A stretch of 27,424 bases of DNA from a virus. Taxonomy: Duplodnaviria; Heunggongvirae; Uroviricota; Caudoviricetes. Positions 1 through 11,088 of this stretch are shown one piece after another; the first letter of the stretch is position 1, and each line of letters opens with the position of its first letter. Where the stretch lies: IMG/VR virus record IMGVR_UViG_2913147268_000004, one strand, 5' to 3'. A model generated the notes under the pieces. That model saw only the letters and a list, made by a program, of their open reading frames with translations, was not told the origin of the DNA and ran no database searches. Position numbers and translations under genes: made by a program.

Positions 1-91
1 CACAACATCCGAGGACAGCAACACCCGATACTTTTTCCTGGCTTCCAGCAACGGGGTTTCTTCCTCCGTTGCATATACAGCTCACCTTTTT

Positions 92-385
92 TCACCCACG
101 ATTAACCAACAGCCAGACCAGCAGACACGCCACCACCGGCACAGCAAAATCCATCAGGCTTGCCACATCCCAAGCTCGCGGATCAAAACCGCCCCACCAC
201 GGCATATTCATTCGCTTGCCATGCCCGAACATTTCAATCCAGCGATATTCTGCCTGGGTATGTTCACGCGCAATGAAGAACGTACAACCGGCTATCGCTC
301 CGTAAGCCCAGTTTCCGGTAAAAAGACCAACCAGTATCTGCGCAGCCACAGCACAAAGTGCATGAAGTAAGGGGCTTATATCCAT
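92..385 (-). CDS. hypothetical small membrane protein (two predicted transmembrane helices)
   Basis: 97-codon ORF; SD-like AAGGAGG 5-7 nt upstream of the ATG at 385; starts 12 nt after the stop of the preceding minus-strand gene; two long hydrophobic segments in the translation. No family recognised. Confidence 0.5.
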   Translation of the reverse strand: MDISPLLHALCAVAAQILVGLFTGNWAYGAIAGCTFFIAREHTQAEYRWIEMFGHGKRMNMPWWGGFDPRAWDVASLMDFAVPVVACLLVWLLVNRG

Positions 386-397
386 TATTTCCTCCTT

Positions 398-676
398 TCA
401 GCTCCATTCCCGAAGCGGTGTTTCCAGCTCCACGACATAATCAGAGAATACAGAAACATCAAACAAGTCATCAAGAATGCGAATGTTGACAAAATAACCG
501 TCATTCCGGACACAGACAGGTTCTCCCTCTTCTGTTACCCCTGTTTCTGTGTAGGTGAAACCAATTTCATCGACTAACAGTTTATTCTGGAGGTCTTCAT
601 CCTCCTCCCAGTCAAGAGATGACAGGAAGGATTTAAACTCTCTGTTACCAGGAAATTTCAAAGTTAAATCTTTCAT
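398..676 (-). CDS. hypothetical acidic 92-aa protein downstream of side tail fiber gene
   Basis: ATG at 676 overlaps the stf stop (ATGA overlap, translational coupling); translation is D/E-rich; not similar to lambda Tfa as I recall it. Confidence 0.5.
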   Translation of the reverse strand: MKDLTLKFPGNREFKSFLSSLDWEEDEDLQNKLLVDEIGFTYTETGVTEEGEPVCVRNDGYFVNIRILDDLFDVSVFSDYVVELETPLREWS

Positions 677-2694
677 ACTGCCTCCTTGATTTGCCTGTCA
701 TTTAATTCTTTAAACCAGACTCTGAAATTTCTGATGTGTCCAAACAAATGACGCGTTCCTGCTGCGGTCTGCCCACCAAACCGGTACGATGTTGCTGTAA
801 CTCCAAATATTTTACCATTAAGGTTTGTTGTATAATTACCATTGCATATTGCATTTACTGATAAATCAGATTTAGCTCTCACACCCACAATGAACCTTTC
901 TCCATCTGAGGCAATTTGTGGCTGAACCATTCCTACGTTGGCGCTTATCTTTCCTGTTGCAACAAACCCCAGCGATAAATAATTATCATCAATACTGTGC
1001 CCTCCAACATCAAATATCCTTGGCGCAACATTGGGCGGTGTACTCCAGTTCCTGCTTACTTCGCACAATACCGTAAAAGGCCGTGTTGACAGGTTATTCT
1101 GCGATGGGATAGTAACTACATCACTTGCGCGTGTTGTTGGCATTGTAGTTACAATAAATGACGATGCCGTATTGCCCAGTTCAATTTGCGGCGTCGTCAT
1201 GGTTAATGTTGAGTCATCATAGAATGTCTCATTACTTATTTTATTTGTCATATAAAAAGCACAGTTAACGGTATCAATGTCCGTATTAGCTGTATAAGTG
1301 GCCTCATAGTAGGTCCACTCGCCCTGTTGTTCAGCTTTGGCTGTTATAAGGGATGTATTACCGCTTACTGTTGCGATCCGGGTATCCAGATCAAGATAAG
1401 AGTCAGCAGAGAAGGTATCTGTTCCACCAATAATAACTGAAACTCTTAACCTGCATCGTGCTTTAGCGCCTTTAACCCGGCACGAAAAAGTGAAACATTC
1501 ACCACTTGCCAGCGGGAATCTGTCTGCTGCAACCACACCATGCACAGTATAGCCACCTGTTGTTCCCACTATACTTTCCGTGGGTGTCACCGTGGCATAA
1601 TTGAACCCCTGTTTATCAGTGCCAAATGTTTTATTCAGTGCGGAATGAACAGTCCATGAGTCTGGTTTATTTGAGTTCCTCAGATAATTTGTCCTCTGTC
1701 CTTCAATCAATAAGCCATCGCGCTCAAATCGCGGTTCGTCAACTTCAGCAAGCTTGAGTTGGCCGGACTTATTAATATACGTTGCTGTTGAAGCACGTTT
1801 AAACTTAACAATCTTGTCGCCTGGCATTGTTATTTCATCGTCACCAATAACTATCTTTTTATAAGATGGCGAAAAACCCGTAATCATATCCAGTGAATCG
1901 TTAAACGGTATCCACACATCAGGCAGCGGCGGCACTATATTCGCACAGGGCTCTGCAGTCACTTCCGCTGCGGCTTCTGCGCGGTCTGCCGCCTTTTCAG
2001 CTCGTGTCGCTGCCGACAGAGCCTCATCCTTTTTCTGCCCGGCCTTTGTTGCGTCTGCTGCGGCCTCCCGCGCTTTTGTGGTGGCGACTCCGGCATTTTC
2101 AGCGGCTGACTCTGCATTACGGCGGGAAGCCTCTTCACTGTCTGCGGAGGCTTCTTCTGACGCACGGGCATTTGTCTCTGAACGTTCTGCCGCTGTTGCT
2201 GCGTTTTGTGCGGCTGTTTTTGAAGAAGCTGCCGCTTTCGCGCTGTTACCTGCATTCGTCTCTGATGTTTTCGCCGCGTTCCTGGACGATGCCGCTGCTG
2301 TTTCTGATTTCTTTGCTGCCGCTGCGCTCTGAGAGGCGGCTTCAGCGTTGCGTGCCGCCTCTTCCACCATCTTTTCAAAACGATACAGTGCCTCCGGACA
2401 AACATCATCTTCTGTTGCAGCGCCCAGAAAATCATTCAATGTCCCCGGCTTAGAATCCTCATACACGGTGATGGTCCCGGCATGTGAAGGCGGAAAACCT
2501 TCAACCAGCAGGGCGACGCTGTACTGGCCATACTCAACATCCATGCTGTAACGTCCGGCTTCATCCGGATTTTCTGAGGCCACCGTGTTCACCACAACTG
2601 TGGTGCTGTTACGTTTTGCTTTGAGCTGAATGGTGCAGTTCTGTATCGGTTTTCCTGCACCGTCTTTCAGCACACCTGAAATCTGTACTGCCAT
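673..2694 (-). CDS. stf: side tail fiber protein, Stf family (lambda-like N-terminus, divergent C-terminal domain)
   Basis: N-terminal ~95 aa (MAVQISGVLKDGAGKPIQNCTIQLKA...) match my recollection of lambda Stf; followed by Ala/Ser/Glu-rich repeat region typical of Stf shafts; likely start is ATG at 2694 with GGAG SD (track ORF begins at GTG 2700). Confidence 0.85.
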   Translation of the reverse strand: MAVQISGVLKDGAGKPIQNCTIQLKAKRNSTTVVVNTVASENPDEAGRYSMDVEYGQYSVALLVEGFPPSHAGTITVYEDSKPGTLNDFLGAATEDDVCPEALYRFEKMVEEAARNAEAASQSAAAAKKSETAAASSRNAAKTSETNAGNSAKAAASSKTAAQNAATAAERSETNARASEEASADSEEASRRNAESAAENAGVATTKAREAAADATKAGQKKDEALSAATRAEKAADRAEAAAEVTAEPCANIVPPLPDVWIPFNDSLDMITGFSPSYKKIVIGDDEITMPGDKIVKFKRASTATYINKSGQLKLAEVDEPRFERDGLLIEGQRTNYLRNSNKPDSWTVHSALNKTFGTDKQGFNYATVTPTESIVGTTGGYTVHGVVAADRFPLASGECFTFSCRVKGAKARCRLRVSVIIGGTDTFSADSYLDLDTRIATVSGNTSLITAKAEQQGEWTYYEATYTANTDIDTVNCAFYMTNKISNETFYDDSTLTMTTPQIELGNTASSFIVTTMPTTRASDVVTIPSQNNLSTRPFTVLCEVSRNWSTPPNVAPRIFDVGGHSIDDNYLSLGFVATGKISANVGMVQPQIASDGERFIVGVRAKSDLSVNAICNGNYTTNLNGKIFGVTATSYRFGGQTAAGTRHLFGHIRNFRVWFKELNDRQIKEAV

Positions 2695-2752
2695 ATTCAC
2701 TCCACAAATAAAAAAGGCACCATTTCTGGTGCCCGAATTTGGGTTTTAAAAT

Positions 2753-4030
2753 TCAACTGATACTGATGCCGGCTGTTGATTTCTTCATCACGACAACAAG
2801 AAGGTCGCTGATACTGGTCGTTGGCGTCCAGTTATTTGCACCATATGAAGAAACATTGAAAGTCAGGGTGACATGGCCGTGTCCGGCAGGCATATCAATG
2901 ACTGATGAAAATACCCTGCTGACATCCGTCGCGGGTTGCTGAAAGATTTCCTGTCCGTTCTTCAGCACCTGCAGCTTACAGGTTGAATACCAGTATGACT
3001 GTTGGTTGTTGCTGTTGAAGTTTTCATGCTTACCACCGCGAAACAGAACGGGGGGGACGACTATCTGACGGTCAAAAGCCTGGTCATCGTACACAGTGAC
3101 CGTTATTGTACCGCTGGCATAACTGCCATTTCTCGGAAAGGCTTTTCCCACCGTTTTGACAATATCACCTTCAATCTGGTTAGCTGACAGTTTTCCCAGA
3201 ATCCGACAGTTCTGGTTAATCGTGACATTATTGAGCGTCCCGGAGTTCGCATTCACGTTACCGCTGATATCCGCATTTCTCGCAGAAAGTCGACCATCAG
3301 GTGTCAGTGAAAACGTTGGGGGATTGCCACCGCTGGTAATGGTGGGAGCCGTCAGATATTTCAGGAACACTTCGTTCATGAATATCTGATCGCCCTGCCC
3401 AACAAACATCGGCTTTGTATTGCCATTCGCAGGATTAATCATCGCAATCCTGTCCGCCGCCAGCAGCACCTGACTCTGCATACCGTCAGGGGTATTCTCA
3501 ATACCGGCACCAATACCCGCGATATAAAGGCGTCCGTCCTGCATCTGCTGCAGCTTCACAGCCCACATGCTGTTCAGGTTATTATTTGTATCAACCTGAA
3601 CCTTCTGTATCTGCTGGATCGCTGCACTCTGGTCTTCCAGTTTCTTATTGACGGTCTGCGTGATTTCATTGCTGACATCCGTAATGGACGTCCTGATTTC
3701 AGCCAGGTCAGGCGCAAGCTGACCGTTATCAATCTGCGTCCACAACTCCTGAGCCAGATGGGTTTTCCCTATCTCTCCTTTGAAAAAATCCAGATAGCCG
3801 GATGCATCATCACTCGGCTGGCCAACAGCCTCCACAAATGCCGATTTGCCAACGGTGTTCACACTGCGAATGTAAAAATAATAATCATGGCCCGGTTTGA
3901 TATTGATACTGGCGGCTATCCAGTACAGCGCCGTACCAAGATAACGCGCGCTGGCTTCAACCTGCCTGATATCCGCAATCCGCTTTTCCGAGAACCAGAA
4001 CTCAAACTGTAGGAACGTAGTACTCACCAA
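2753..4030 (-). pseudogene. J: 3' remnant of host-specificity/central tail fiber gene J (C-terminal ~425 codons only)
   Basis: Translation (…[62 protein letters not shown]…) matches the C-terminal third of lambda gpJ as I recall it; no ATG start (track start is TTG); 5' two-thirds of J absent; frame is continuous upstream to the esterase stop codon. Confidence 0.8.
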
Positions 4031-4063
4031 TAAATAAGCGTCAATACGGTGCTCCGTTGACGC

Positions 4064-5095
4064 TTACGGGTTTTGTTGTTGGGGAGCTGTTTTTATAGGC
4101 GCTCCCAGGTTTTTAGTAAACCACTCAACGACTCTGTTTATAATAATTGGCTGATACCATGTCTTATCGCCATGCTCGGCCCCTTCTACCAGCACGTACT
4201 CAGCGTTATCACCGTTCTTCTTCAACATCCTGAATAGTTTGGCGCTTTGCTCAGGTGAAACCAGAGTGTCTTTGCTACCATGCATAATAAGAAATGGGGG
4301 TTTTACTCCTTTCATATGTCCGATTGGACTGGCGTTTAGCGCTTTTTCTTTTGACGCTGTGATGGGGGCTCCCGCAAAATTTCTGAATGCAGGGCCATTG
4401 ATCATTAAGGCTTCGGTTACGGCAGGAGAGCGATGAACCTCCTGCACTGATTCAGGGAACCCCTCGCCAATATTCAACAAGTCAGAAATCCCATAAAGTG
4501 TGGCAACTGCCTGAACATCTGAGGATTGCTGAAGAAAGTCACCTTTATCAAAGGTTTTGTCACCATTTGTAGTTCCCATCATCTGGGCAAGCCATCCACC
4601 GGCAGAGTCACCCAGAACTCCGATTCTTTGAGGATCAATCCCATAATTGCTGGCATGCTCTCTCAGGTAACGTATTGCAGCTTTTCCATCCTCAACTGGT
4701 GCTGGAAATGTATCAGGAATTGTTCTGTATTCTACAGCGGCCACAACAAAACCAGCTTCTGCCAGAGCCATTCTCATTTCAATAAATTTGTCATGTTCAG
4801 AAGACATGAATCCGCCGCCGGGATAATAAATAATGGCTGGTTTTAAATCATTTGTTCGCGGGACAAGAACTGACATGTGAAGCTGTCTGACAGAACGAGT
4901 TCCTTTTATCTGGGAATAAACAACATCACCAATGAGATCGACCTGGTTTCTGGTCGGTGAAACACTAATGATATCTGCACCCGGGGTGTAACCAGGAAGA
5001 TTAGTCTGGACAGGTGTTGCACAACTCCCGACCGACATGGCCATTGACATACCATACAATAGTGTTGCAGATGATAATATCTTGTTAATTTTCAT
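4064..5095 (-). CDS. alpha/beta-hydrolase fold esterase/lipase (HSL-like), predicted lipoprotein
   Basis: 343-aa ORF; N-terminal signal peptide with lipobox-like SVGSC; YPGGGF oxyanion-hole-like motif and GDSAGG nucleophile motif; C-terminal HGSKD and AEHGD segments consistent with catalytic Asp/His. Family assignment by motif only. Confidence 0.75.
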   Translation of the reverse strand: MKINKILSSATLLYGMSMAMSVGSCATPVQTNLPGYTPGADIISVSPTRNQVDLIGDVVYSQIKGTRSVRQLHMSVLVPRTNDLKPAIIYYPGGGFMSSEHDKFIEMRMALAEAGFVVAAVEYRTIPDTFPAPVEDGKAAIRYLREHASNYGIDPQRIGVLGDSAGGWLAQMMGTTNGDKTFDKGDFLQQSSDVQAVATLYGISDLLNIGEGFPESVQEVHRSPAVTEALMINGPAFRNFAGAPITASKEKALNASPIGHMKGVKPPFLIMHGSKDTLVSPEQSAKLFRMLKKNGDNAEYVLVEGAEHGDKTWYQPIIINRVVEWFTKNLGAPIKTAPQQQNP

Positions 5096-5542
5096 GTTTT
5101 ACATGCCTTGACTTATCGGATGAAATTCTCTTACTAAATTTAACGGCAGTTTAATAGCCGTACAACTCGTGGTAGCCAGGGAAATATCCCAGTCGTGGTT
5201 AAGGTTGTACTTGACGGCTATTATTTCAACAATGCTTAAAGTGAGAGCTTAAGGTTATGCGTATGTTTTACAGTCCGAGTAGATTCTGACCAATAGCTTC
5301 TTTGTATAATTCTGTCAGAAATAAATCTTGGCTTGCATGAAGTTTGAGACCTTATCTTGTTTGATTATGAATAATCAATTCGCCATAATTGTATCACCGG
5401 AGCCTGAACAACTCCGGTGACTTCTGCGCTAAACGGGGACGTTTATGCGCACACACAATCCAAACTCTCTTCTCCCTTCACAGATGCAGAAATGCACCTG
5501 CGTTTTTTTGCATCTAGCGTCTGACCTCTGTGGAGGTGAAGC

Positions 5543-5998
5543 GTGAACCTACCACAAGATGGCATCAAACTGCATCGCGGTAACTTCATCGCTATCGGCC
5601 AGCAGATCCAGCCTTATCTGGAGAACGGAAAATGCTTTCGCATGGTGCTTAAACCGTGGCGTGAGAAACGCAGTCTTTCCCAGAATGCACTCAGCCACAT
5701 GTGGTACAGCGAAATCAGTGAATACCTCATCAGCAGGGGGAAATCGTTCGCTACCGCAGCATGGGTAAAAGATGCTCTCAAACACACATACCTCGGTTAT
5801 GAAACCAAGGACCTGGTTGATGTCGTAACCGGCGAAATCACTACTATCCAGTCGTTACGCCATACCTCCGATCTCGATACCGGAGAGATGTATGTCTTCC
5901 TGTGTAAGGTTGAAGCCTGGGCGGTGAATATTGGCTGCCACCTGACTATTCCGCAGAGCTGCGAGTTCCAGCTGCTGCGCGACAAGCAGGAGGCGTAA
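5543..5998 (+). CDS. ybcN: NinB/YbcN-family recombination protein (lambdoid nin region)
   Basis: 151-aa ORF from GTG 5543 with GGAGGTG SD; RSLSQN motif and length match my recollection of NinB/YbcN; syntenic with ninE-ybcO-rusA downstream. Confidence 0.6.
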
Positions 5999-6168
5999 TG
6001 GCTACACCGCTTATTCGTGTCATGAACGGACACATCTACAGAGTACCAAATCGTCGTAAGCGTAAGCCTGAGCTGAAACCATCCGAAATACCAACACTGC
6101 TCGGATATACCGCCAGCCTGGTTGATAAAAAATGGTTGCGACTGGCAGCAAGGAGGAATCATGGCTGA
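5998..6168 (+). CDS. ninE: NinE-like small protein
   Basis: 56-codon ORF not in the supplied track (below length cutoff); start overlaps ninB stop; pattern KRKP…YTA.L.D..WLR..AR resembles NinE as I recall it; synteny. Confidence 0.5.
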   Translation: MATPLIRVMNGHIYRVPNRRKRKPELKPSEIPTLLGYTASLVDKKWLRLAARRNHG

Positions 6169-6451
6169 CTTGAGAAAAGCAGCGCGTGGTCGGGAATGCC
6201 AGGTAAGAATCCCTGGCGTATGTAATGGCAATCCTGAAACGTCAGTACTGGCACATATCCGGCTGGCTGGATTGTGCGGTACCGGTATCAAACCGCCAGA
6301 CCTGATTGCCACCATTGCATGTTCTGCCTGCCACGACGAAATCGACCGTCGCACGCATTTTGTTGACGCTGGATATGCAAAAGAATGTGCGCTGGAAGGT
6401 ATGGCGAGAACACAGGTTATCTGGCTGAAAGAGGGGGTAATTAAGGCGTGA
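6161..6451 (+). CDS. ybcO: YbcO-like (DUF1364) putative Cys-cluster nuclease of nin region
   Basis: 96-aa ORF from ATG 6161 preceded by AGGAGG (6151-6156); Cys cluster CQVRIPGVC…CSACHDE; length and sequence match my recollection of DLP12 YbcO. The track ORF starts at an upstream in-frame ATG at 6122. Confidence 0.65.
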
Positions 6452-6810
6452 ATACTTACTGCATCACACTACCCTGGCCGCCGAGCAATAATCGCTATTA
6501 CCGCCATAATCGCGGACGCACGCATATCAGCGCAGAGGGGCAGGCATACCGCGATAATGTCGCCCGAATCATTAAAAACGCAATGCTGGATATCGGCCTG
6601 GCTATTCCTGTGAAAATCAGCATTGAGTGCCACATGCCGGATCGCCGTCGCCGTGACCTTGATAATCTGCAAAAGGCCGCTTTTGACGCACTCACCAAAG
6701 CAGGTTTCTGGCTGGATGATGCTCAGGTCGTTGATTACCGCGTTGTGAAGATGCCCGTTACCAAAGGTGGGAAGCTGGAGCTGACTATCACTGAACTGGG
6801 AGATGAATGA
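6448..6810 (+). CDS. rusA: Holliday junction resolvase RusA
   Basis: 120-aa translation near-identical to E. coli RusA as I recall it ([25 protein letters not shown]…). Confidence 0.9.
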
Positions 6811-6947
6811 TGTTTGAGTCTTATATGGCAGAACGTCTTCGCCGCCGCTGGGTGCGCCTGCGCTTATATCGTTTTCCTAGTTCTGTTTTGACCGATTACC
6901 GGATACTGAAGAATTACGCCAAAACACTGAAAGGAGCTGCCGCATGA
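6807..6947 (+). CDS. ylcG: YlcG-like small protein
   Basis: 46-codon ORF ([46 protein letters not shown]) overlapping rusA stop and the Q-position gene start; resembles DLP12 YlcG as I recall it. Confidence 0.55.
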
Positions 6948-7633
6948 ATACCCAATATTTACAGTATGTCCGCGAGCAACTCATTGTGGCTACCGCTGAT
7001 TTGAGCGGAGCAACGAAAGGACAGCTTGAAGCCTGGCTGGAGCATGCACAATTTGATACTGGTACATACAAACGAAAGAAGCCGCGCATTCTGGATGAGG
7101 TAACTGGCAGGATGATTACGCTGGATAATCCGCCGATTTCCGGTAAGCAGTTGTACGCAAAAGGTTCATCCATTGCACTGGTCAGCCAGGTTGAGTTCTC
7201 AACCTCGTCATGGCGCCGCGCGGTTCTGTCTCTCGAAGAACATCAGAAAGCGTGGTTGCTGTGGAGTTACAGCGAAAGTGTTCGCTGGGAACATCAGGTC
7301 ACCATAACGCAGTGGGCATGGAGCGAGTTTAAGACTCTGTTGGGTACCAGGAAAATTGCAGGTAAAACACTGGAACGTTTGAAGAAGTTGATCTGGCTGG
7401 CGGCACAGGATGTGAAGAACGAGCTGGCAGGGCGTAAGACCTATGAATACCAGGAGCTGGCATCACTGGTGGGAGTGACATCAAAAAACTGGTCTGAGAC
7501 ATTTACTGAACGCTGGGTTGCAATGAAGCACATTTTTCTACAGCTTGATAGCCAAGCTTTATTGCTTTTAACGAAAACACGTTCAAAACAAAAGACCATA
7601 TTTTCACAGCAAGATATTGCAAAACTGGATTAA
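6944..7633 (+). CDS. putative late-gene regulator at the Q (antiterminator) position; family not recognised
   Basis: 229-aa ORF with AAGGAG SD; sits between rusA/ylcG and the lysis cassette where lambdoid phages encode Q; translation has no cysteines, so it is not a lambda-Q-type zinc-finger protein. Confidence 0.45.
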   Translation: MNTQYLQYVREQLIVATADLSGATKGQLEAWLEHAQFDTGTYKRKKPRILDEVTGRMITLDNPPISGKQLYAKGSSIALVSQVEFSTSSWRRAVLSLEEHQKAWLLWSYSESVRWEHQVTITQWAWSEFKTLLGTRKIAGKTLERLKKLIWLAAQDVKNELAGRKTYEYQELASLVGVTSKNWSETFTERWVAMKHIFLQLDSQALLLLTKTRSKQKTIFSQQDIAKLD

Positions 7634-7840: not shown

Positions 7841-7954
7841 CCAGGCTTGCGGGGAGCATCAACTCCGTGCTTTGTCGTTAAATTACCCCGTGAGCCTGAT
7901 TTCTGACATTTAACGTCCCGGCCTTTTGTCGGCGGCGAAACATTGGCTATTCAT

Positions 7955-8260
7955 ATGCACGAAAAAGAGAGCCTTGCCGGAGCGTTCTGGCTCGTTTTGC
8001 TGATCATCGCAGGTTGGGGCGGTCTGGTCCGCTACCTGATAGATGTGAAGCAGAGTAAAGCAACGTGGAGTTGGATAAATGCTCTGGCTCAAATAGTGGT
8101 ATCAGGATTCACCGGTGTTATTGGTGGCCTGATCAGCATCGAAAGTGGATTCAGTATTTACATGATTCTCGCGACAGCGGGGATTAGTGGTGCGATGGGT
8201 TCGGTTGCACTGACGTACTTCTGGGAACGACTGACAGGGGTGAAAAATGCAAAATCTTAA
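7955..8260 (+). CDS. holin (three predicted TM segments)
   Basis: First gene of the lysis cassette, overlapping the R start; three hydrophobic segments; possible dual start (TTG at 7943 and ATG at 7955, MAIHM…). Confidence 0.7.
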   Translation: MHEKESLAGAFWLVLLIIAGWGGLVRYLIDVKQSKATWSWINALAQIVVSGFTGVIGGLISIESGFSIYMILATAGISGAMGSVALTYFWERLTGVKNAKS

Positions 8261-8723
8261 TCCTCAGCGTAAAGCCTTCCTCGATATGTTGGCGTGGTCA
8301 GAAGGAACGGATAACGGGCGACAACCGACACGTAACCACGGTTATGATGTTATTGTTGGCGGCGAACTGTTTACTGATTACTCCGATCACCCTCGCAAAC
8401 TTGTCACGCTACACCCCAAACTCAAATCAACAGCCGCCGGACGTTATCAGCTTCTTTCACGCTGGTGGGATGCTTACCGTAAACAGCTTGGTTTGAAAGA
8501 CTTCTCCCCCAAAAGCCAGGACGCAGTGGCATTACAGCAGATTAAAGAGCGTGGTGCTTTACCGATGATTGATCGCGGTGATATCCGTCAGGCAATCGAC
8601 CGTTGCAGCAATATCTGGGCTTCACTGCCGGGCGCTGGTTATGGTCAGTTCGAGCATAAGGCTGACAGCCTGATTGCAAAATTCAAAGAAGCTGGCGGAA
8701 CGCTCAGAGAGAGTGAGGTATGA
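8247..8723 (+). CDS. R: endolysin R (lambda-type lytic transglycosylase)
   Basis: 158-aa translation near-identical to lambda gpR as I recall it (…[48 protein letters not shown]…). Confidence 0.95.
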
Positions 8724-9181
8724 GCAGAATAACCGCGATTATCTCCGCTCTGGTTATCTGCGTCATCGTCTGCCTTTCATGGGCGGTTAATCATTACCGC
8801 GATAACGCGATTACCTACAAAGCCCAGCGCGACAAAAATGCCAGAGAACTGACGCTGGCGAACGCGGCAATTACTGACATACAGATGCGTCAGCGTGATG
8901 TTGCTGCGCTCGATGCAAAATACACGAAGGAGTTAGCTGATGCGAAAGCTGAAAATGATGCTCTGCGTGATGATGTTGCCGCTGGTCGTCGTCGGTTGCA
9001 CATCAAAGCAGTCTGTCAGTCAGTGCGTGAAGCCACCACCGCCTCCGGCGTGGATAATGCAGCCTCCCCCCGACTGGCAGACACCGCTGAACGGGATTAT
9101 TTCACCCTCAGAGAGAGGCTGATCACTATGCAAAAACAACTGGAAGGAACCCAGAAGTATATTAATGAGCAGTGCAGATAG
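8720..9181 (+). CDS. Rz: i-spanin Rz
   Basis: 153-aa translation near-identical to lambda Rz as I recall it; N-terminal TM segment. Confidence 0.95.
8940..9122 (+). CDS. Rz1: o-spanin Rz1 (lipoprotein, embedded in Rz in +1 frame)
   Basis: 60-aa ORF wholly inside Rz; lipobox VVGC; Pro-rich; matches lambda Rz1 as I recall it. Confidence 0.9.
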
Positions 9182-9212: not shown

Positions 9213-9506
9213 TTATTGTGAGCAATACACACGCGCTTCCAGCGGAGTATAAATGCCTAAAGTAATAAAACCGAGCAATCCATTTACGAATGTTTGCTGG
9301 GTTTCTGTTTTAACAACATTTTCTGCACCACCACAAATTTTTGCTGCATCGACAGTTTTCTTCTGCCCAATTCCCGAAACGAAGAAATGATGGGTGATGG
9401 TTTCCTTTGGTGTTACTGCTGTAGGTTTGTTTCCAACAGTAAACGTCTGTTGAGCACATCCTGTAATAAGCATTGCCAGAGCGGCAGAAAACAACATTTT
9501 TTTCAT
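9213..9506 (-). CDS. bor: Bor lipoprotein (serum-resistance-associated lysogenic conversion protein)
   Basis: 97-aa translation from ATG at 9506 (MKKMLFSAALAMLITGCAQQTFTV…) near-identical to lambda Bor as I recall it. The track ORF extends 16 codons upstream. Confidence 0.9.
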   Translation of the reverse strand: MKKMLFSAALAMLITGCAQQTFTVGNKPTAVTPKETITHHFFVSGIGQKKTVDAAKICGGAENVVKTETQQTFVNGLLGFITLGIYTPLEARVYCSQ

Positions 9507-9986
9507 CTTATTATCCTGCATTGTTAAAAACGGCAGAATCCTATGTGACAACAATTAAACGATAGTTAAATGGATTGATGAAAATTAAAACTACACAGGT
9601 GGGCTCAGACTATTGGAGGAAGTTGGGGACACTCAGAATCCTGTGGAATGAAATAAACCGGTCTATCCGTCCATTACCCTTTTAGCTGCGCTGTATCGTC
9701 GCCGTATTCCCGCATTAACCATGACCGTAGCCCGACGGGGAATTCCTTCTGCGTGAGTGTGCGGGAATAATTAAAAACGATGCACACCGGGTTTTTACCG
9801 CGTTAATGATTCGCGGGTTTATCCCGGTGCGATGGTGGAAGAAACAGGAAGCTGTATTACAGAAAGTGCTACTACTGTATCCCGATGCGATGTATGTAAT
9901 GTGAGTCAGATAATGGCACAGGATGTGGTGATGTGGCAGTCTGGAACACAGGATATATTGTCAGAATAAGACCCGTAGGAATAAAA

Positions 9987-10313
9987 ATGAAAAGACGCCT
10001 TTTACTACTTTTTCTGTTATCTGTCCTGGCAGTGGGATGCTCGCAGCAAAAAGCTGATGAGCCCCGGCAATTAGTGACGGTGTATCCACGATATCCGGAA
10101 TATGCTGCAGCAAATTATATCAAGGGGCTGGTTGAGGTTAAGTTCGATATTGGTGCTGATGGGACTGTGACACGGATCGTTTTTCTCCGCTCAGAGCCTC
10201 ATAATTTGTTTCGTGATGAAGTGGTGAAGGCCATGGCGAAATGGCGATTTGAAAAGAATCGCCCCTGTCAGGGAGTGAAGAGACAATTTATCTTTACGCC
10301 GTCACGTCCTTGA
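9987..10313 (+). CDS. lipoprotein consisting of a TonB C-terminal-like domain
   Basis: ATG 9987 with AGGA SD 6 nt upstream; signal peptide plus lipobox LAVGC; mature region aligns by eye to the E. coli TonB C-terminal domain as I recall it (YP…VEVKFDIGADGTV…NLFRDEVVKAMAKWRFE versus TonB …VKVKFDVTPDGRV…NMFEREVKNAMRRWRYE). Confidence 0.65.
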   Translation: MKRRLLLLFLLSVLAVGCSQQKADEPRQLVTVYPRYPEYAAANYIKGLVEVKFDIGADGTVTRIVFLRSEPHNLFRDEVVKAMAKWRFEKNRPCQGVKRQFIFTPSRP

Positions 10314-10405
10314 TGCTTCCAGGTAGAGAGGGGCTGGAAGCAGGAGAAAAATGAAAGAGCCAGCGGTTATATTTTTGTCATGGCTGACGAGGAATGATGG
10401 AAGAA

Positions 10406-10428
10406 GGCGTTGTATGCCACACAACGCC
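10406..10428. terminator. candidate terminator hairpin downstream of the TonB-C lipoprotein gene
   Basis: GGCGTTGT-atgccac-ACAACGCC perfect 8-bp stem followed on the + strand by a T-rich tract; it overlaps the 3' end of a weak minus-strand ORF, so assignment is uncertain. Confidence 0.3.
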
Positions 10429-10676
10429 TCACTGTTCATTTCTTCTTTTTCTCTGGTGGAACCCGATGAATAAGAGTTGCACTGGTTTCCGATGAGATGG
10501 CGATATACTCGGGCAAAGTATGCTGGCAGTTTTCCAACTGGTCAAAAATACCTGCTCTCGTCTGTTGCAATGCCTGCAGCATGCGGCGGCAATGCGCCTT
10601 GCTTTTACTAACCATCTTTCCTTCCTCTATCAGTCGCTGCGTGAACTCATCATGGAATACCAGGTAAATGCGGATG

Positions 10677-10928
10677 TTATCGGTTTTGGCTACGCAGCAT
10701 AGTACAAAACGGACAGGTGCATCCCGGGACGGGGGAGGCGTCACATGTCCCTGTGATGGTTGTTCCGGGTAATGTACTGTGTGGGGCATAAAAATGTCCG
10801 ATAATTTTACTTTCTACCGCAGTTAGTTGATTCGTTGGTCCTGGTAGCACATTGGGCGAGGATTTAAATGCCAGGCAACTGAAGGATGATGTCGCAAGGG
10901 AGATAGCGAGAATATTTCTGATTTTCAT
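10677..10928 (-). CDS. hypothetical small secreted Cys-rich protein (83 aa)
   Basis: ATG at 10928 preceded by AGAGG SD; predicted Sec signal peptide (MKIRNILAISLATSSFSCLA); rare-codon-rich; overlaps ORFs in other frames, so coding status is uncertain. Confidence 0.35.
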   Translation of the reverse strand: MKIRNILAISLATSSFSCLAFKSSPNVLPGPTNQLTAVESKIIGHFYAPHSTLPGTTITGTCDASPVPGCTCPFCTMLRSQNR

Positions 10929-11076
10929 TTGATGATGCCTCTGTGTGAAATGACGGTAAACGACGCACTTGTGCCGGCACATAATAGCAAGCACCATAAT
11001 AGATCAGATTCGATTCTTGCTGTAAGTGATAATTATTCTCGTTTTCGGGTCCTTTCCGTCGATCCAACAGGTTACG

Positions 11077-11088
11077 GGGCGGCGACCT
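11077..11088 (+). other. cos: cosN cohesive-end site (GGGCGGCGACCT), with cosB (Nu1/IHF binding region) downstream to about 11265
   Basis: Exact lambda 12-nt cohesive end sequence; flanking sequence (…CGGGTTTTCGCTATTTATGAAAATTTTCCGGTTTAAGGCG…) matches the lambda left end as I recall it; immediately upstream of nu1. Confidence 0.85.

Follow-up and report, generated by a model that had tools for sequence, protein, structure and literature searches.

Why would a lambdoid prophage carry the C-terminal domain of TonB on a small lipoprotein of its own? The question was raised by a gene for a 108-residue protein in a viral DNA stretch of 27,424 nucleotides (nt; IMG/VR record IMGVR_UViG_2913147268_000004, Caudoviricetes), the whole of which is termed the window. 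TonB-dependent receptors are the entry route for siderophores, vitamin B12, many phages, group-B colicins, microcins, and siderophore-conjugated antibiotics. An earlier reading of the letters alone (the sequence-only reading) had regarded the protein as a free TonB C-terminal domain that might compete with host TonB at such receptors. In the present analysis, the gene and its domain were examined by sequence searches, structure prediction, and comparison of loci. The chances were judged to be almost evenly balanced that the protein acts as an outer-membrane-tethered, unenergised competitor for TonB boxes and thereby damps TonB-dependent uptake.

The identity of the mature protein was evaluated by profile, sequence, and structure comparisons. 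Matches were obtained with the hidden Markov models Pfam PF03544 (TonB_C; E = 7.3e-13, with 49.2 bits where the cutoff is 24.6) and TIGR01352 (tonB_Cterm; E = 1.8e-12, 47.4 bits against a cutoff of 27.1). A phmmer search of the PDB gave E values of about 1e-14 for every E. coli TonB C-terminal domain chain, all ungapped, and BLASTP aligned residues 23–103 with residues 150–230 of E. coli TonB without gaps and with 41% identity. The AlphaFold2 (AF2) model, which was based on an alignment of 35 sequences, had a mean predicted local distance difference test (pLDDT) value of 86 and values above 96 for residues 31–100; it replaced an earlier model from an alignment of eight sequences, the pLDDT of which was 58. 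Helices were placed by the model at residues 38–42 and 76–83, and strands at residues 47–55, 61–70, and 94–103. In the Foldseek comparison, the root mean square deviation (RMSD) of the model was 0.9 Å from TonB bound to FhuA (2grx_C) and 1.0 Å from TonB bound to BtuB (2gsk_B), with a TM value of 0.92 in both cases. The 11 best PDB matches (E ≤ 6e-6) were all C-terminal domains of TonB or FusB; their RMSD values were 0.9–2.8 Å (0.9–1.7 Å for the top six). Moreover, the mature protein covered the stretch of TonB to which the chains of the receptor complexes are aligned. The equivalents of TonB Y163, P164, F180, G186, F202, W213, and F230 were kept in the alignment and Y215 was replaced by F; these eight positions are reported to be important in TonB mutagenesis. 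Judged from sequence and model together, the mature protein is a complete TonB C-terminal domain. Hence, the stand-alone domain on a lipoprotein that the sequence-only reading had proposed was found again by the TonB_C profile, by the PDB sequence matches, and by a confident model with the TonB-C fold at about 1 Å from receptor-bound TonB.

The export signal of the protein was then considered. The coding sequence ran from an ATG to a TGA in the open reading frame (ORF), the mechanical call of which began earlier, with a GTG at 9933; its coordinates (9987–10313) and its length of 108 residues agreed with those first reported. The N-terminus, MKRRLLLLFLLSVLAVG-C18-SQQ, had a basic n-region and a hydrophobic core, which were followed by an L-A-V-G-C lipobox, i.e., the pattern of signal peptidase II. 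Written as MKRR-LLLLFLLSVLAVG-C18, the same segment carried the sequence pattern of lipobox proteins. The lipobox Cys was aligned in 30 of 35 family members and was also present in a variant with 70% identity (variant B, as opposed to variant A in the window), which was consistent with the lipoprotein predicted before. In E. coli, lipoproteins without Asp at position +2 are sorted to the outer membrane. The residue at +2 was Ser here and S, T, or A in the relatives, and Asp was found at this position in no family member. Because Ser rather than Asp occupied position +2, the 108-residue lipoprotein was predicted to reside in the outer membrane under this rule. Residues 1–18 were a putative cleavable lipoprotein signal, and about 12 residues then separated the lipobox Cys from the folded domain. 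In this region, the pLDDT value was less than 50 at residues 17–19, and the means of the ten-residue blocks were 51 (11–20), 82 (21–30), and 96 (31–40). Neither a transmembrane helix nor a Pro-rich spacer was found in the protein, just as the sequence-only reading had stated in denying it a proline-rich spacer and an ExbBD-interacting helix.

The protein was compared with E. coli TonB (C-terminal domain approximately 150–239; PDB 1U07, 1XX3, 2GSK, and 2GRX). In addition to the ungapped identity and the alpha/beta fold described above, the YP motif and the aromatic core were shared. However, the lipoprotein lacked the N-terminal transmembrane helix and the Pro-rich spacer and thus would not be coupled to ExbB/ExbD. 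TonB is anchored in the inner membrane, whereas the lipoprotein was predicted to be lipid-anchored in the outer membrane; it also lacked the last four residues of TonB and fell into a separate clade. The best score with the true TonB equivalog models was 69 bits versus 315, the cutoffs of which spanned 265–448, and only the C-terminal third of the profile was matched. The protein is a member of the TonB_C family and not a TonB, since the membrane anchor and the Pro-rich spacer were both missing.

The distribution of the gene and the selection acting on it were explored. The DNA of the gene was 100% identical in phage 21 (CPT_21_73, annotated "TonB C-terminal domain protein") and identical in phages ev017, PhiR47_2, PhiR57_1, and PhiR63_2, and it was 99.9% identical in Perceval. 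An identical copy was located 480 nt from iss in Nissle 1917 (WP_000830178.1). Among 5426 complete E. coli genomes, 1219 (approximately 22%) held at least 80% of the 901-bp region, and the exact 108-residue protein was encoded on at least 1000 contigs. Variant B occurred in Stx1a phages and JLK-2012, between Rz1 and the HNH-terminase module. The ratio of nonsynonymous to synonymous substitution rates (dN/dS) between variants A and B was 0.12, with dS saturated at approximately 1.5, and that of the signal peptide alone was 0.16. The low ratio, together with the conserved lipobox Cys of the relatives, indicated that the ORF had not arisen by chance. By these sequence measures, the gene is real, and strong purifying selection acts on the protein together with its export signal.

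An exhaustive HMMER search and a profile search returned many relatives of 105–135 residues, which were 31–49% identical over their full length and nearly all of which had a lipobox. According to the source names, they came from Salmonella enterica, the Klebsiella pneumoniae complex, Raoultella, Serratia, Erwinia, Pantoea, Rahnella, and Gibbsiella. In a neighbor-joining tree of the domain (no bootstrap), the TonB_C-only lipoproteins formed a clade apart from the enterobacterial TonB C-terminal domains, and the window protein was grouped with prophage members from Salmonella and Klebsiella and with chromosomal members from Klebsiella and Raoultella. The lipoprotein clade had motifs of its own, SEPxHLFD and KWRFExxKP. 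The chromosomal member in Serratia grimesii lay between ycgN and dsbB, that in Raoultella adjoined yagU and the gene of a Spy-like protein, and that in Pantoea was surrounded by metabolic genes; near the chromosomal members, no homologues of phage lysis or terminase genes were detected. As judged from the sequences, the gene belongs to a distinct and old Enterobacterales clade of TonB_C-only lipoproteins. A recent capture of the 3′ end of host tonB was ruled out by the tree, in which the separate clade contained chromosomal, non-phage members. A functional study of the gene was not found in full-text literature searches, and the databases label the product "TonB family protein." The domain is already recognised by public annotation, so the observation itself is not new; new here are the definition of the family with its chromosomal members, the finding that the prophage copies lie on the late strand, and the presence of Fur boxes in the relatives together with their loss in the window copy.

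The expression signals were examined by a scan for Fur boxes in the 140 nt that precede the start codons (22 upstream regions, 300 dinucleotide shuffles for each). In most lineages of the relatives (loci L002–L010, L011–L016, L017–L047, L053–L062, L065, and L068), matches of 14–17 of 19 positions were found, which ended 6–55 nt before the start codon, and in 9 of the 22 regions none of the 300 shuffles attained the observed score. The scores of the chromosomal relatives were 16 for Klebsiella, 15 for Raoultella, 17 and 16 for Serratia, 16 for Erwinia, and 16 for Pantoea. In the Salmonella prophage relatives (promoter AGTATTGATAATTATTATC), a box with 15–16 matches overlapped a promoter-like TTGAGT-18-TATTAT, and a strong terminator followed approximately 400 nt downstream (locus L002). 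In the Klebsiella prophage relatives, the box had 13–14 matches, and its first GATAAT was the −10 element of TCTACA-17-GATAAT. On this evidence from sequence, the lipoprotein family is largely part of the iron-starvation regulon, and the prophage copies of Salmonella and Klebsiella look like true morons.

The window copy gave another result. The best Fur-box match upstream of the gene was 10 of 19 and was attained by 281 of 300 shuffles, the best score for a sigma-70 promoter upstream on the + strand (8.8) was below the median maximum of the shuffles (9.8), and no intrinsic terminator was found 3′ of the gene. In variant B, a match of 13 of 19 lay within the perfect palindrome GAATAAGaCTTATTC, which ended 10 nt before the ATG; only the left half of this operator-like site is left in the window (Table 1). 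The alignment indicates that the E. coli/phage 21 copy has lost its Fur operator. Given that neither promoter, Fur box, nor terminator was found, a moron expressed in the lysogen is unproven for this copy, and its only transcription assured by position would be that of the Q-dependent late operon. In the sense of Hendrix and Juhala, a moron is an autonomous unit that is expressed from the prophage, with a promoter before it and a terminator behind it. The term moron used in the sequence-only reading therefore suited the Salmonella and Klebsiella prophage relatives with their Fur-box promoters and did not suit the window copy, which lay on the late strand without a promoter or terminator of its own. 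As a separate observation, the antisense promoter-like site inside the coding sequence (2612–2639 in locus L050) had a counterpart in variant B, TTCACA-16-TATAAT (11/12), at the same offset of +154 from the ATG. This site would drive transcription, with a start near 10107, over the 5′ end of the gene toward bor/iss.

Table 1. Positions of the gene, its parts, and its neighboring features in the window.
Feature	Position	Strand	Basis
Rz i-spanin gene with embedded Rz1 o-spanin gene (8940–9122), end of the lysis cassette	8720–9181	+	ORFs; 97–100% identical to Rz/Rz1 of phage 21
bor/iss lipoprotein gene, divergent neighbor	9213–9506	−	Pfam Lambda_Bor, E = 1e-30; annotated iss in Nissle 1917
Conserved structured non-coding element after Rz, upstream of the TonB_C gene	9693–9783, second hairpin to about 9825	+	432 phage records, RNAalifold
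Left half (GAATAAG) of palindromic operator-like site	9964–9970	+	Upstream alignment; right half removed by a 13-nt deletion relative to variant B
Shine-Dalgarno AGGA, 6 nt 5′ of the ATG	9977–9980	+	Read from the letters; ribosome binding site annotated there in the phage 21 record
Coding sequence of the 108-residue TonB_C-only lipoprotein	9987–10313, including stop	+	ORF, ATG at 9987, TGA ending at 10313
Predicted lipoprotein signal peptide, ending in lipobox LAVG-C18	9987–10040, Cys codon 10038–10040	+	Sequence pattern
Predicted flexible tether from lipid anchor to folded domain, residues 19–29 (SQQKADEPRQL)	10041–10073	+	AF2 pLDDT
TonB C-terminal domain, residues 30–104, equivalent to E. 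coli TonB 157–231	10074–10298	+	AF2, Foldseek, ungapped alignment
Antisense promoter-like site inside the coding sequence, TTAACC-16-TGnTATAAT	10114–10141	−	Highest-scoring promoter match of the region, not below the 95th percentile of shuffled sequences
cosN cohesive-end sequence GGGCGGCGACCT	11077–11088	+	Exact lambda match

The position of the gene in the prophage was explored as well. The packaged genome ended on the right approximately 760 nt away from the gene, with the holin at 7943, the endolysin at 8247, and Nu1 and terminase A from 11266. The Lambda_Bor match and the exact cosN confirmed the earlier placement between bor and cos, on the strand opposite bor. In 47 IMG/VR loci and in sequenced phages, the gene was on the late-operon strand wherever a late gene was recognisable, 3′ of the holin, endolysin, and spanins and 5′ of the terminase; in locus L008, it sat between two spanin sets. 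This place, between the lysis genes and cos, is the classical cargo slot of lambdoid phages, and because the gene lies on the late strand, Q-dependent late transcription must read through it. The slot after the lysis genes is shared with the lysogenic-conversion outer-membrane proteins Bor/Iss and Lom, and bor/iss, which also encodes a small outer-membrane lipoprotein, is the immediate neighbor. However, bor runs in the opposite direction and is a gene expressed in lysogens, whereas the late strand carries the TonB_C gene, for which no promoter was detected. Another difference concerned iss, because the ColV plasmids bearing it were without the TonB_C gene, their iss loci matching the window only up to 9786. 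A linkage to the ColV/iss plasmids, which would suggest self-protection from TonB-dependent colicins, was ruled out in this way.

In the proposed mechanism, the lipoprotein would show a complete, unenergised TonB C-terminal domain at the periplasmic face of the outer membrane on its short tether. Since the protein has neither a transmembrane helix nor the contact with ExbB/ExbD, it could not transduce energy. The domain would bind the TonB boxes of the TonB-dependent outer-membrane transporters, and possibly also those of incoming group-B colicins, by beta-strand addition to the exposed strand 94–103, in other words, it would compete with host TonB as a decoy. TonB-dependent uptake would then be damped, and the cell would be less sensitive to TonB-dependent phages, colicins, and microcins, while the import of siderophores and B12 would suffer to some extent. 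With the Fur-repressed promoter of most relatives, production of the protein would be expected under iron scarcity, when receptor abundance is highest.

Several known systems are relevant to this mechanism. The TonB C-terminal domain binds the TonB box of a receptor by parallel strand addition to its beta-3 strand in the FhuA–TonB structure (PMC11658791). Overexpression of the periplasmic TonB domain reportedly inhibits iron import via TonB-dependent transporters in a dominant-negative manner, periplasmic TonB fragments inhibiting FecA and FhuA transport (Howard, Herrmann, Stratilo and Braun, 2001, J Bacteriol 183:5885; as cited in PMC9841981), and a TonB-box pentapeptide reportedly lessens both infection by phi80 and killing by colicins (also as cited in PMC9841981). 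The engineered TonB fragments are the direct precedent for the function proposed here and resemble the window protein in that a TonB C-terminal domain is present in the periplasm without an energised anchor, but they are artificial, soluble, and overexpressed, whereas the window protein is a natural and diverged paralogue with a predicted lipid anchor. Llp of phage T5 is a lipoprotein of the outer-membrane inner leaflet that inactivates FhuA from the periplasm. Like the window protein with its predicted location, Llp and the Cor proteins of phi80, N15, and HK022 are small phage lipoproteins of this leaflet, and they exclude superinfecting phages by acting on the TonB-dependent receptor FhuA from the periplasmic side. 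They are specific for FhuA alone, whereas a TonB-box binder would in principle affect all TonB-dependent receptors. No likeness to Llp or Cor was found in sequence or fold, the sole family matches being TonB_C and the protein's own PHROGs, and no known defence-system protein was matched in PADLOC. The decoy mechanism was supported by the TonB_C matches and the modelled fold, by the conserved lipobox and the strong purifying selection, by the Fur boxes over the promoters of the relatives, which link the family to iron/TonB physiology, and by the cargo slot beside bor/iss in the prophages of about 22% of the complete E. coli genomes.

Other results weighed against a decoy. The equivalents of TonB Q160 and R166, which contact receptors, were replaced by Tyr33 and Tyr39. 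The chromosomal members occupied unrelated neighborhoods, which suggests a housekeeping role that was merely borrowed by phages. The window copy had no detectable promoter or Fur box and was on the late-operon strand; it may be made only in lytic growth, when excluding TonB-dependent phages brings little obvious benefit. Furthermore, the induction of an iron-uptake inhibitor under iron starvation is paradoxical unless its effect is mild or selective, and the identical copy was carried by Nissle 1917, which relies on TonB-dependent siderophore uptake. The Fur induction of the relatives and the carriage by siderophore-dependent strains argue against a strong, constitutive block. A broader proposal was regarded as plausible but doubtful, namely a family of outer-membrane TonB decoys in Enterobacterales and their prophages, mostly induced by iron starvation, which would provide pan-receptor exclusion of TonB-dependent phages, colicins, and microcins and also tune iron uptake.

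The same Fur boxes can be read in another way, in which the tethered domain is a positive or regulatory part of TonB-dependent transport. Its function might be to keep TonB boxes in place or pre-organise them, to share out scarce TonB among the receptors, or to modulate receptor signalling, and as prophage cargo it might improve the iron economy of the lysogen, as sitABCD in phage 21 might. Such an accessory was considered unlikely. The strong boxes 5′ of most relatives, including the chromosomal ones of Serratia, Raoultella, Klebsiella, Erwinia, and Pantoea, would fit it, as would the chromosomal members without phage genes nearby, the sitABCD genes that are also carried by phage 21, and the presence of the gene in siderophore-dependent strains. 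However, no way is known in which a TonB C-terminal domain could promote transport unenergised, the sole experimental precedent for free domains, as cited in PMC9841981, is inhibition, and the window copy was without a Fur box. There is a smaller chance that the ligand is a different one and that the TonB_C fold serves as a generic periplasmic binder of peptidoglycan, of another outer-membrane protein, or of host TonB by heterodimerisation. The separate clade with its own motifs, the changes at TonB positions 160 and 166, and the inclusion of proteins with other roles, e.g., AgmX/PglI, in Pfam TonB_C and related NCBIfam models are consistent with such a binder. Nevertheless, the structural core and the edge strand that pairs with the TonB box are retained in the model at about 1 Å from receptor-bound TonB, and the Fur regulation links the family with iron/TonB physiology.

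The genomic position of the gene has also been considered. A late accessory of lysis or egress, made solely from the late transcript with the holin, endolysin, and spanins, would act during lysis, on the peptidoglycan or at the outer membrane, or would prevent the loss of progeny on cell debris. It would be in keeping with the late-operon strand after the spanins and before the terminase, with the place between two spanin sets in L008, with the lack of a detected promoter in the window copy, and with the label "Rz-like spanin" of PHROG 1267. This role was held to be improbable, because intact Rz and Rz1 genes already fill the spanin role, the fold is that of TonB_C and not of a spanin, the prophage relatives have Fur-regulated promoters of their own, and the chromosomal relatives have no lysis genes near them. 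The receptor of lambda is LamB, which is TonB-independent; the tail module in the window was lambda-like (97% DNA identity), and the masking of a receptor for the phage's own progeny does not fit with it. Finally, older annotations as a "partial" or "truncated" tonB-like protein and the many truncated copies in the databases might suggest a decaying, functionless fragment of a captured tonB. This view is scarcely credible and was effectively refuted by the selection and conservation data: the dN/dS of 0.12 at saturated dS, the newly acquired and conserved signal peptide and lipobox, the same 108-residue sequence on all those contigs, and the distinct, old clade.

If the decoy mechanism holds, all TonB-dependent gates would be affected at once, via their common TonB box, by a natural TonB mimic on a lipid anchor. 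The mimic would confer a one-step, receptor-independent tolerance that is carried by about one fifth of E. coli genomes, beside iss in extraintestinal pathogenic E. coli strains and Nissle 1917. The gene is common, as it occurs in phage 21, in Stx1a phages, and in Salmonella and Klebsiella prophages as well as in those E. coli genomes, and it adjoins the virulence marker iss. It could affect the host range of phage therapy, the gut ecology of colicins and microcins, and how susceptible the bacteria are to siderophore-conjugated ("Trojan-horse") antibiotics. Iron limitation, to which the Fur boxes of the relatives point, is the condition under which a phenotype should be sought.

The remaining observations concerned the surroundings of the gene. 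The PHROG 1267 label "Rz-like spanin" (match E = 5e-43) was rejected, since Rz and Rz1 were separately present, the fold was that of TonB_C, and the gene stood alone. An o-spanin is a short, Pro-rich outer-membrane lipoprotein whose gene is paired with or embedded in an i-spanin gene. The label probably came from the position and lipoprotein nature of the members, and it could spread as a mis-annotation, for which the label of VT2-Sakai orf48 may be compared.

The structured element upstream of the gene, approximately 90 nt long, followed Rz in the lambdoid phage records, among them those of lambda, 933W, VT2-Sakai, and a Salmonella phage. Its outer stem was GUAUCGU/ACGAUAC, and its inner stem was UAUUCCCGCAU/GUGCGGGAAUA. 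In the RNAalifold analysis, five pairs had compensatory changes, and the U-G pairs favored the + (late mRNA) strand. The z value of the element was −2.4, and no Rfam family matched it (9693–9783). Between variants A and B, the element was better conserved than the TonB_C coding sequence. The homology at its 3′ edge ended at 9795 with lambda and at 9786 with the ColV iss plasmids. The small ORFs flanking the gene (9832–9969 and 10351–10473) had no family matches, and the upstream region containing the first of them had indels between the two variants.

Overlapping ORFs were present on both strands of 10436–10997, each of which matched a PHROG of unknown function, and the coding strand was ambiguous. 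Among them, phrog_4843 corresponded to 59 residues on the minus strand and phrog_3744 to 60 residues on the plus strand, the latter being annotated in RefSeq. For a minus-strand ORF in the same region, which started with MKIRNILAISLATSSFSCLA, no family was matched; its N-terminus resembled a signal peptide, and it contained several Cys residues. In the leftmost 5 kb, the window carried, on the minus strand, a tail fibre gene (673–2700), a 425-residue C-terminal fragment of J with the receptor-binding domain (2753–4030), and a BD-FAE esterase gene (4064–5095). This inverted tail-fibre/J block (1–5100) abutted ninB/ybcO/rusA/Q on the + strand (5543–7633) with no immunity or replication region between them, and the prophage is accordingly rearranged or mosaic. 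In phage 21 (OL657228.1, 21967–24502; locus L070), the sitABCD genes in the b region encode an iron/manganese ATP-binding cassette importer, a second iron-related cargo, and the import of Fe2+ and Mn2+ by Sit is independent of TonB.

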